NCBI RefSeq assembly: GCF_001677475.2
Contig: NZ_CP015229.1
Strand: one strand, 5' to 3'
DNA from: Escherichia coli
GTDB lineage: Bacteria; Pseudomonadota; Gammaproteobacteria; Enterobacterales; Enterobacteriaceae
Length of the DNA: 64,000 nucleotides
Shown: positions 44,125 to 45,554 of the stretch, one piece after another
Layout: each line of letters starts with the position of its first letter
How positions within the stretch are numbered: the first letter of the stretch is position 1
Notes under the pieces: model-generated
Seen by the model: the letters and a program-made list of their open reading frames with translations, nothing else
Told to the model about the DNA's origin: nothing
Databases searched by the model: none
Program-made: the position numbers and the translations under genes

Positions 44125-44966
44125 ATAATTTACCGGTAGTTCGTTCGCCCTGGCGGATTGTGATTTTGCTGCTGGGCTTCACCTTTCTCTACGCGCCAAT
44201 GCTGATGCTGGTGATCTATTCATTCAACAGCTCGAAGCTGGTGACGGTGTGGGCCGGCTGGTCAACGCGCTGGTATGGCGAATTATTGCGCGATGACGCA
44301 ATGATGAGTGCGGTTGGTTTAAGCCTGACAATTGCGGCCTGTGCGGCGACGGCGGCGGCGATCCTCGGGACGATTGCGGCGGTCGTGCTGGTGCGCTTTG
44401 GCAGGTTTCGCGGATCAAATGGTTTTGCCTTTATGATCACCGCGCCGCTGGTGATGCCAGATGTCATCACGGGCTTGTCGCTATTGTTGTTATTCGTCGC
44501 GCTTGCTCATGCCATTGGCTGGCCTGCGGACCGCGGTATGCTCACCATCTGGCTGGCGCATGTCACTTTCTGTACGGCTTATGTGGCAGTCGTTATTTCG
44601 TCGCGTCTGCGGGAACTGGATAGCTCGATAGAAGAAGCAGCGATGGATCTCGGTGCGACGCCGCTGAAAGTGTTTTTCGTCATTACGCTACCAATGATCA
44701 TGCCCGCGATCATTTCTGGCTGGTTACTGGCTTTTACTTTGTCGCTTGATGATCTGGTGATCGCCAGCTTTGTTTCCGGGCCGGGAGCCACCACGTTACC
44801 GATGCTGGTCTTTTCCAGCGTGCGGATGGGGGTGAATCCGGAAATCAACGCCCTGGCAACATTGATCCTCGGCGCGGTCGGAATTGTCGGATTTATCGCC
44901 TGGTATCTGATGGCGCGCGCAGAAAAACAGCGGATACGCGACATCCAGCGTGCAAGACGTGGCTGA
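44121..44966 (+). CDS. potI: Putrescine ABC transporter permease PotI
   Basis: 281-aa product from MNNLPVVRSPWRIV; ATGA overlap with potH stop. Confidence 0.88.
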   Translation: MNNLPVVRSPWRIVILLLGFTFLYAPMLMLVIYSFNSSKLVTVWAGWSTRWYGELLRDDAMMSAVGLSLTIAACAATAAAILGTIAAVVLVRFGRFRGSNGFAFMITAPLVMPDVITGLSLLLLFVALAHAIGWPADRGMLTIWLAHVTFCTAYVAVVISSRLRELDSSIEEAAMDLGATPLKVFFVITLPMIMPAIISGWLLAFTLSLDDLVIASFVSGPGATTLPMLVFSSVRMGVNPEINALATLILGAVGIVGFIAWYLMARAEKQRIRDIQRARRG

Positions 44967-44997
44967 AGACACTAAAATTTGCCAACCTGGCTACATA

Positions 44998-45024
44998 ATG
45001 CCGCGCATGTCGCGGCATTGTTTT
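44998..45024 (+). terminator. Rho-independent terminator after potFGHI
   Basis: atgccgcgcatgtcgcggcat hairpin followed by tgtttt; the T-tract ends 1 nt before the annotated ybjO ATG. Confidence 0.55.
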
Positions 45025-45025
45025 C

Positions 45026-45514
45026 ATGGAAGACGAAACGTTGGGATTTTTTAAGAAAACATCTTCATCTCATGCTCGCCTGAATGTGCCTGCGCTGGTG
45101 CAGGTGGCGGCGCTCGCCATTATTATGATCCGTGGCCTCGACGTGCTGATGATTTTCAATACGCTGGGCGTGCGCGGTATTGGCGAGTTCATTCATCGCA
45201 GCGTACAAACCTGGAGTTTAACGCTGGTCTTTTTAAGCAGTCTGGTGTTGGTTTTTATTGAGATCTGGTGTGCGTTTTCACTGGTGAAAGGGCGTCGCTG
45301 GGCGCGCTGGCTGTATCTGTTGACACAAATCACGGCCGCAAGTTACTTGTGGGCGGCTTCGCTGGGGTATGGTTATCCGGAGCTGTTCAGCATTCCCGGT
45401 GAATCAAAACGTGAAATCTTCCATAGCCTGATGCTGCAGAAGCTGCCGGATATGCTCATCCTGATGCTGCTGTTCGTTCCCTCGACCAGTCGGCGGTTCT
45501 TCCAGTTGCAATAA
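45026..45514 (+). CDS. ybjO: Inner membrane protein YbjO (DUF2593)
   Basis: 162-aa hydrophobic ORF; synteny; no obvious Shine-Dalgarno before the first ATG. Confidence 0.75.
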   Translation: MEDETLGFFKKTSSSHARLNVPALVQVAALAIIMIRGLDVLMIFNTLGVRGIGEFIHRSVQTWSLTLVFLSSLVLVFIEIWCAFSLVKGRRWARWLYLLTQITAASYLWAASLGYGYPELFSIPGESKREIFHSLMLQKLPDMLILMLLFVPSTSRRFFQLQ

Positions 45515-45554
45515 TGTGTATAATCGTCGCCCCTGATGATGTGAAGGTCAATGT

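Follow-up and report, generated by a model that had tools for sequence, protein, structure and literature searches.

Introduction

In Escherichia coli, the T-run of a terminator-like element behind the potFGHI putrescine-importer operon ends 1 nt before the annotated ATG (45026) of the next gene, ybjO, with only C45025 in between. This arrangement raises the question of where the synthesis of YbjO begins and which transcripts carry the gene. A preliminary description of this DNA had stated that no room is left there for any Shine-Dalgarno (SD) motif, and had offered three possibilities: that ybjO starts at a downstream codon, that it is translated without a leader, or that it is expressed only by read-through of the terminator.

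Locus and annotation

The locus was analyzed in the window, i.e., the whole stretch of 64,000 nucleotides under study, in whose numbering all positions are given; features lie on the plus strand unless a minus strand is indicated. According to the RefSeq annotation of E. coli 042 and K-12, the gene order is potH-potI-ybjO-rlmC (plus strand). E. coli chromosomes are 99.6% identical to the window, and the region is present in 5,418 of 5,426 complete genomes. Between 44940 and 45060 the sequences of the window and K-12 MG1655 are identical, and K-12 coordinates were obtained by adding 852,963 to the window coordinates. By sequence and RefSeq annotation, the TGA stop codon of potI (44964-44966) marks the end of the potFGHI operon. 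For the start of potI, the mechanical list of open reading frames gives GTG 44079 (295 aa) and RefSeq gives ATG 44121 (281 aa), the latter overlapping the potH stop codon by 4 nt, which is ordinary translational coupling.

The start of ybjO annotated by RefSeq is ATG 45026-45028, codon 1 of a 162-aa ORF (b0858 of K-12 MG1655, 897989..898477). The product is an inner-membrane protein of the YbjO/DUF2593 family, and the first residue of its Pfam domain (PF10767) is residue 21 of the 162-aa form. A protein search returned orthologues with at least four different N-termini set by gene callers (157, 162, 165, and 169-178 aa), the 157-aa form being used by RefSeq in Salmonella, Yokenella, Lelliottia, and others. 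A review citing RegulonDB places ybjO in one operon with rumB/rlmC.

For comparison, a set of orthologous loci from Enterobacteriaceae (80 loci, one per species) was combined with the window to give 81 loci, anchored on invariant downstream codons. The DNA alignment of the potI-ybjO spacer comprised 70 distinct orthologous sequences.

The annotated ATG

The 17 nt located 5′ of the annotated ATG pair with the anti-SD sequence at -1.7 kcal/mol, against a background mean of -2.1 kcal/mol, and this ATG is thus without a Shine-Dalgarno sequence, as the preliminary description had concluded from the position of the T-tract. A stable hairpin ends 5-7 nt upstream, inside the footprint of a 30S subunit centred on this codon. 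Among the 81 loci, 28 have the ATG in frame (Escherichia, whose whole clade, L002-L007, retains it, some Citrobacter, Klebsiella, Kluyvera, and Leclercia). In 6 loci it lies in another frame, and in 47 its place is taken by AGG, ACG, or AAG. The T of the E. coli ATG is the sole variable column (T, G, C, or A) within an otherwise invariant CAnGGAA, and the residues specified by codons 2-5 of the annotated form are not conserved (EDET, EDDS, EDDA, EDFT, EGDT, EDIT). Judged by conservation and by the published profiling data described below, ATG 45026..45028 is most likely not a start, its G being the first base of the SD sequence of a downstream codon, and the annotated start is very probably a gene-caller artefact.

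Two other reading frames were considered at this site and rejected. The next in-frame ATG (Met34, 45125) is already within the first transmembrane segment, which is invariant, and within the Pfam domain. A minus-strand ORF (45027..44893) starts at the CAT of the ATG site, and its own ATG is present only where the plus-strand ATG is.

Conservation of a TTG or GTG start

A TTG codon at 45041..45043 (K-12 898004; 897227 in U00096.2), located in frame 15 nt downstream of the annotated ATG and corresponding to codon 6 of the E. coli form, is most likely the true initiation codon of ybjO, as judged from conservation and from tetracycline ribosome profiling (TetRP). The codon-6 column holds TTG in 73 and GTG in 8 of the 81 loci, and never CTN, TTA, or ATG. 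As a control, 14 conserved internal leucine columns of ybjO were inspected in the same genomes; each used 3-6 leucine codons and none was fixed (overall, CTG 74% and TTG 8%). Because these control columns vary freely, codon 6 is taken to be constrained as a start codon and not as leucine.

Near the start, the invariant columns of the DNA alignment are exactly C-A-n-G-G-A-A and nTG. In 36 of the 81 loci, the stretch from the upstream stop to the TTG/GTG is devoid of in-frame start codons, and in 5 (three Trabulsiella, Raoultella terrigena, and Silvania confinis) an in-frame stop lies only 6 nt 5′ of the TTG/GTG. The stretch between the SD sequence and the start (45033..45040, annotated codons 3-5) behaves as non-coding DNA, with in-frame TAA or TAG in some genera, and is regarded as not coding because of its 1-nt indels. 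An apparent 1-nt frameshift early in ybjO was observed in Leclercia adecarboxylata NCTC13032 relative to other Leclercia (locus L071, ~1500-1545); it is either a sequencing error or the mark of a pseudogene.

Initiating ribosomes were mapped by TetRP in the work of Nakahigashi et al. 2016 (DNA Res 23:193; PMC4909307). In row 88 of Table S2 of that paper, ybjO has an entry as a 'new site', with TTG as start codon at +15 nt (897227, U00096.2) and the product MGFFKK... (157 aa). The TetRP values in three samples were 129, 60.2, and 16.7 at the TTG versus 0, 0, and 0 at the annotated ATG, and the lacZ fusions meant to check this site had activity too low in all constructs (PMC4909307). The correction of the ybjO start is therefore already known, having been published in 2016 and being implicit in the RefSeq annotation of other genera; it is absent from the K-12 and RefSeq E. 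coli annotation. The one N-terminomics supplement searched (TRAINSPOTTER 2026) yielded no N-terminal peptide of YbjO, and a literature search including the Meydan 2019 preprint, Conway 2014, Choe 2022, and Grunberger 2022 found no independent initiation-site, TSS, or 3′-end data for ybjO.

From conservation together with the published TetRP signal, the start of ybjO is nearly certain to be UUG 45041 (GUG in some genera). The revised CDS (45041..45514; ORF, Pfam, and protein search) comprises 157 aa and a stop codon. The downstream start offered by the preliminary description is thereby strongly supported, and the two checks it had proposed, namely initiation peaks in ribosome profiling and conservation of alternative in-frame starts, both single out the TTG/GTG codon.

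Shine-Dalgarno sequence and strength of the initiation site

The sequence GGAAG (45028..45032), which overlaps the annotated ATG, was assigned from its invariance and spacing as a weak Shine-Dalgarno sequence for the TTG start. GGAA is invariant in 70 of 70 distinct sequences, and GGAA(G) is found 6-9 nt 5′ of the start in all 81 loci (8 nt in 53, including the window, and 7 nt in 22). The duplex of GGAAG with the anti-SD sequence has an energy of -3.3 kcal/mol, and 31% of background positions pair as well or better; because this pairing is weak, the case for function is made by invariance and fixed spacing. The preliminary description had named a canonical ribosome-binding site (RBS) for a downstream start as evidence against it. 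A site of this kind does exist, albeit a weak one, and it in fact supports the first alternative which that description itself had offered.

A weak SD sequence combined with UUG predicts very low translation, in agreement with the failed lacZ fusions. None of the species in the 81-locus set has ATG in place of the TTG/GTG start, which would point to selection keeping the expression of this membrane protein low. Relative to the UUG, the hairpin ends ~20 nt upstream, where a 30S footprint centred on that codon would have its 5′ edge.

It was also observed that GUUUUC of the U-run can pair with GAAGAC (the SD sequence and its flank) within 45020-45034, forming a 6-bp mini-hairpin with the ATG as loop, and that this mini-hairpin appears in the MFE and centroid folds of the read-through RNA. 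If formed as modelled, it could partly mask the SD sequence. All of its columns are invariant, and covariation is consequently uninformative.

Hairpin and U-run after potI

A GC-rich, conserved, terminator-like hairpin (44995..45021) was identified after potI by folding and covariation. Its 9-bp core is formed by the arms 44997-45005 (AAUGCCGCG) and 45011-45019 (CGCGGCAUU) and encloses the loop CAUGU (45006-45010); with additional pairs the stem can reach 11 bp (44995-45021). The stem is followed by G45020, UUUU (45021-45024), C45025, and the ATG at 45026-45028. Folded alone, the hairpin has an energy of -16.3 kcal/mol (z = -3.35), and none of 200 shuffled sequences was as stable; its 79-nt context is less distinctive than the hairpin alone (z = -1.74). 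Within the window the hairpin is single-copy.

Among the 70 distinct sequences, 49 different hairpins were found (median, -15.7 kcal/mol), and double compensatory changes were present in 9 of 9 consensus stem pairs, with stem variants such as GCCGCG/CGCGGC, GCGCAGC/GCUGCGC, CCUCUCCC/GGGAGAGG, and GGUUCCC/GGGAACC. In the stem alignment 96% of cells are paired, versus 24-61% in slid registers, and none of 500 shuffles reached the observed values.

The U-rich tail UUGUUUUC (45018..45025), with its uninterrupted T-run at 45021-45024, was read from its sequence as a terminator tail and, on the precedent of rnd, possibly as a translational enhancer. A T-run of 3-5 stands directly before the invariant CA in 74 of the 81 loci, and the other 7 carry TTTTT(T)CACA. 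When the 9-bp stem is taken, the tail GTTTTCAT contains 5 T in 8 positions. A simple consensus terminator scan did not list the potI-ybjO hairpin, probably since some of the short T-run is taken up by the maximal stem; by consensus the hairpin is borderline as a terminator, its U-tract being short and interrupted by G. From this signature, the hairpin and the U-run would represent the intrinsic terminator of potFGHI, and the short, interrupted U-tract suggests that termination is only partly efficient. No entry for potI or ybjO 3′ ends was found in the supplement text of Adams 2021 or of SMRT-Cappable-seq 2018.

Several other readings of the hairpin were considered. A REP/BIME-type repeat was rejected, the hairpin being single-copy in the window. 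As to a known RNA family, the only Rfam hit was asX2 at chance level (20.9 bits versus a gathering score of 70, E = 0.38). Pairing of the A-run of TAAAAT, the box described below, with the U-run to extend the stem was dismissed, since the box variants TATTAT, TACTAT, and TAGAAT occur without a compensating change in the U-run. A 3′-UTR-derived Hfq sRNA from potI is unlikely, given the short U-tail and the lack of conservation from the box to the hairpin.

Candidate promoter and transcription of ybjO

The sequence TAAAAT (44973..44978) belongs to a conserved TAnnAT box, a candidate sigma-70 -10 element of a ybjO promoter. TAnnAT is present in 80 of the 81 loci (TAAAAT in 68, TAGAAT in 4, TACTAT in 4, TATTAT in 3, and TATAAT in 1); T1 and T6 never vary and A2 and A5 are conserved to at least 90%, a pattern typical of a sigma-70 -10 hexamer, the rest of the spacer being variable with indels. 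It is the only conserved non-coding element 5′ of the hairpin. A candidate weak -35 element proposed from the sequence, GTGCAA (44950..44955; 3/6 to TTGACA), lies inside the last potI codons at exactly 17 nt from the box, without indels in any genus, even where the C-terminus or the stop of potI differs. Conservation of GTGCAA is explained by coding constraint on potI as well. A consensus promoter scan called no promoter in the potI-ybjO region, the box being missed because the -35 element is weak. As judged from these sequence features, the chance that the box is the ybjO promoter, with a TSS near 44985 (predicted, 44984-44986) upstream of the hairpin, is placed somewhat short of even. For sequences of the Enterobacter type, the TSS predicted in this way lies 1-3 nt in front of the stem. 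For a TSS of ybjO, the Kim 2012 supplements yielded only an orthologue table for b0858.

Rearranged loci were compared at the same site. In K. spallanzanii (L047), an insertion of ~200 nt follows potI, and a TAnnAT-type box (TATAAT/TAATAT) stays beside the hairpin. In Intestinirhabdus alba (L073, 1380-1450), potI was not found upstream by tblastn, apart from a short C-terminal remnant (…KKRRIRDIPRARGG…), and the TAAAAT box, the hairpin, GGAAG, and the TTG of ybjO are all intact despite this degradation. One Superficieibacter (L077) carries an insertion of 125 nt that separates the hairpin from the box, and the box stays next to potI.

Because the SD sequence begins 4 nt after the last T, any ybjO mRNA contains the hairpin or starts within it. 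To have a promoter 5′ of a terminator is an awkward arrangement, except where termination leaks or where the hairpin acts mainly as a 5′ element of the mRNA. Of the proposal that ybjO is expressed only by read-through of the terminator, the part that stands is that every ybjO mRNA must cross the hairpin, but the source of these transcripts may be the candidate promoter at 44973-44978 and not potFGHI exclusively.

Side observations were made on the spacers flanking ybjO. In the ybjO-rlmC spacer (40 nt, 45515-45554), a -10 box (45519..45524) lies directly at the stop codon of ybjO and is highly conserved, as TATAAT in Escherichia, Enterobacter, and Citrobacter and as TGnTACAAT, an extended -10, in Klebsiella, Kluyvera, Kosakonia, and others; 3′ of it come GCCCC, also conserved, and then an AAGG SD sequence. 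From this conservation, rlmC probably has a promoter of its own, despite being listed in one operon with ybjO. The sequences suggest that ybjO and rlmC each have a small conserved promoter and are insulated from the potFGHI operon. Highly structured insertions of 100-200 nt were seen in the potI-ybjO and ybjO-rlmC spacers of several species (L047:1240-1450; L077:1330-1455; and 3′ of the ybjO stop in L024, L028, L032, L039, L059, and L073), some of which contain what we take to be ERIC/IRU-like sequences (e.g., ...CCCCAGGAGCTTACATAAGTAAGTGA...). The conserved boxes and the hairpin stay next to the downstream gene in these cases (for the box of L077, see above).

Weighing of the explanations

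The account considered highly probable as a whole is that the annotated ATG is an artefact, that ybjO starts at UUG 45041 with a weak GGAAG, that the hairpin and U-run end the potFGHI transcript, and that YbjO is made in low amounts. According to this account, the weak SD sequence GGAAG (45028-45032) would position the 30S subunit at UUG 45041 (GUG in some genera), and the hairpin with its short U-run would end the potFGHI transcript. The ybjO transcripts, all bearing the hairpin, would derive from partial read-through of potFGHI, from the candidate promoter (GTGCAA, 17 nt, TAAAAT), or from both, and the terminator-like hairpin, the weak SD sequence, and UUG together would lead to very low synthesis of YbjO. 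Of this account, the layout of the elements, the conserved start codon and SD sequence, the lack of conservation of the ATG, the covariation of the hairpin, and the published initiation footprint are observations. Termination at the hairpin, promoter activity of the box, and an rnd-like contribution of the U-run to translation are the parts which we infer.

It is extremely improbable that the annotated ATG is the real start in spite of its missing SD sequence, whether on a leaderless transcript beginning at its A or by SD-independent initiation on a read-through mRNA. This codon is the first ATG of the ORF, is the one chosen by PGAP in E. coli, and is in frame in 28 of the 81 loci; however, it is absent or out of frame in the remaining 53, in-frame stops precede the conserved TTG/GTG in 5, codons 2-5 contain frame-breaking indels, and its TetRP signal was 0 in all three samples (PMC4909307). 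The hairpin of -16 kcal/mol ending 5-7 nt upstream speaks against initiation there, and the -10 element needed for a leaderless transcript, i.e., for a TSS at the ATG, would be located within the covarying stem; a consensus scan found no promoter-like site at the corresponding distance. Translation without a leader, the second possibility in the preliminary description, was accordingly discarded. Dual initiation where the ATG is in frame, mostly at UUG with a minor 162-aa proteoform from AUG, is also very improbable, though less so. As a start codon AUG is intrinsically far superior to UUG, the ATG has been retained across the Escherichia clade (L002-L007), and the low TetRP depth at the weakly expressed ybjO could hide a small fraction; against this stand the lack of an SD sequence, the hairpin within the footprint, the zero reads in three samples, and the five extra residues, which are not conserved as protein. 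The position of the T of this ATG in the variable column of CAnGGAA suggests a neutral variant in the flank of the SD sequence.

A further reading concerns the hairpin and is compatible with the UUG start. The hairpin and U-run may be mainly the 5′-leader of a dedicated ybjO mRNA transcribed from the TAAAAT box, as a stabilizing stem-loop and an S1-binding enhancer, and not chiefly the potFGHI terminator; this is regarded as unlikely, although it carries more weight than the two readings above. It would accommodate the fixed 17 nt between GTGCAA and the TAnnAT box, the predicted TSS just before the stem in Enterobacter-type sequences, and the persistence of box and hairpin with ybjO where potI is displaced or degraded (L047, L073), as well as the same anatomy in the rnd leader, whose U-run is reported to be needed for translation. 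On the other hand, the -35 element is poor (3/6) and no promoter was called by the scan, and in L077 the box stays next to potI, 125 nt from the hairpin. A GC-rich stem and a U-run after the last gene of an operon are the textbook signature of an intrinsic terminator, with the U-run conserved in all genera; the hairpin is preferably read as a terminator of potFGHI.

As a consequence of the UUG start, the E. coli reference YbjO (K-12 b0858 and WP_000389260-type RefSeq entries) is five residues too long, and one conserved TTG/GTG start resolves all the divergent N-terminal annotations of YbjO. A start codon that appears to abut a terminator is a useful sign that the start may have been called wrongly. 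The additions made here are modest, namely the comparative proof of the start, the covariation of the hairpin, the candidate promoter, and the rnd-like layout, and none of the results on ybjO would surprise a specialist.

Comparison with known systems

Nakahigashi et al. 2016 reported the same TTG codon of the same gene, whereas comparative and structural analyses were not part of that study. Compared with a canonical Rho-independent terminator, the potI-ybjO element is alike in its GC-rich stem of 9-11 bp, its 5-nt loop, and, in part, the U-rich tail immediately 3′, and it resembles canonical operon-end terminators in that the hairpin lies 30 nt after the last potFGHI stop and that structure, not sequence, is conserved. 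It differs from a canonical intrinsic terminator in that the U-tract on the ybjO side has 4 consecutive U (3-5 in most genera) and is interrupted, and in that the next RBS follows 4 nt after the last U, which makes read-through functionally required.

The closest likeness was found by direct comparison of 44995-45043 with the K-12 fadD-rnd junction (L083:3975-4065, minus strand), which consists of the fadD stop, a hairpin ACGCCGG/CCGGCGU, U8, a weak purine-rich SD sequence, and UUG. The anatomy of the two leaders is the same: the upstream stop is followed by a terminator-like hairpin rich in GC, then by a U-run, and then by a weak SD sequence and UUG, with U8 and 24 nt from the U-run to UUG in rnd versus UUGUUUU and 16 nt in ybjO. 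The U-run of rnd is reported to be needed for translation. By analogy, the U-run of ybjO could have two roles, forming the tail of the terminator and, as a U-rich, S1-binding element, enhancing translation from a poor RBS. The mRNA of rnd is described as a UUG mRNA with a U-rich translational enhancer (Zhang & Deutscher, JBC 1989 and PNAS 1992, as cited in PMC7769764 and PMC3592434). Besides rnd, ybjO is a second example of a UUG gene with a weak RBS directly behind a terminator-like hairpin and a U-run, and a succession of terminator-like hairpin, U-run, weak RBS, and UUG might recur as a design elsewhere.

In the polyamine modulon of Igarashi and Kashiwagi, polyamines stimulate the translation of E. 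coli mRNAs with a poor or distant SD sequence or an inefficient start codon, such as the UUG start of cya. ybjO resembles the members of this modulon in its weak SD sequence, its conserved UUG/GUG, and its place directly behind a putrescine importer; drawn from sequence features and position, this likeness is a lead only. A polyamine response of ybjO is conceivable because a weak SD sequence and UUG mark the modulon and because the gene follows the importer of putrescine. The 70-nt potI-ybjO spacer might be a dedicated and conserved module for expression, in which the -10 box and the hairpin precede a U-run of dual role (leaky terminator tail and rnd-type, S1-binding enhancer), the weak SD sequence, and UUG, and in which read-through or UUG initiation might respond to polyamines, a speculation drawn by analogy and considered improbable. 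If true, such a polyamine-responsive module would tie the synthesis of YbjO to the uptake of putrescine.
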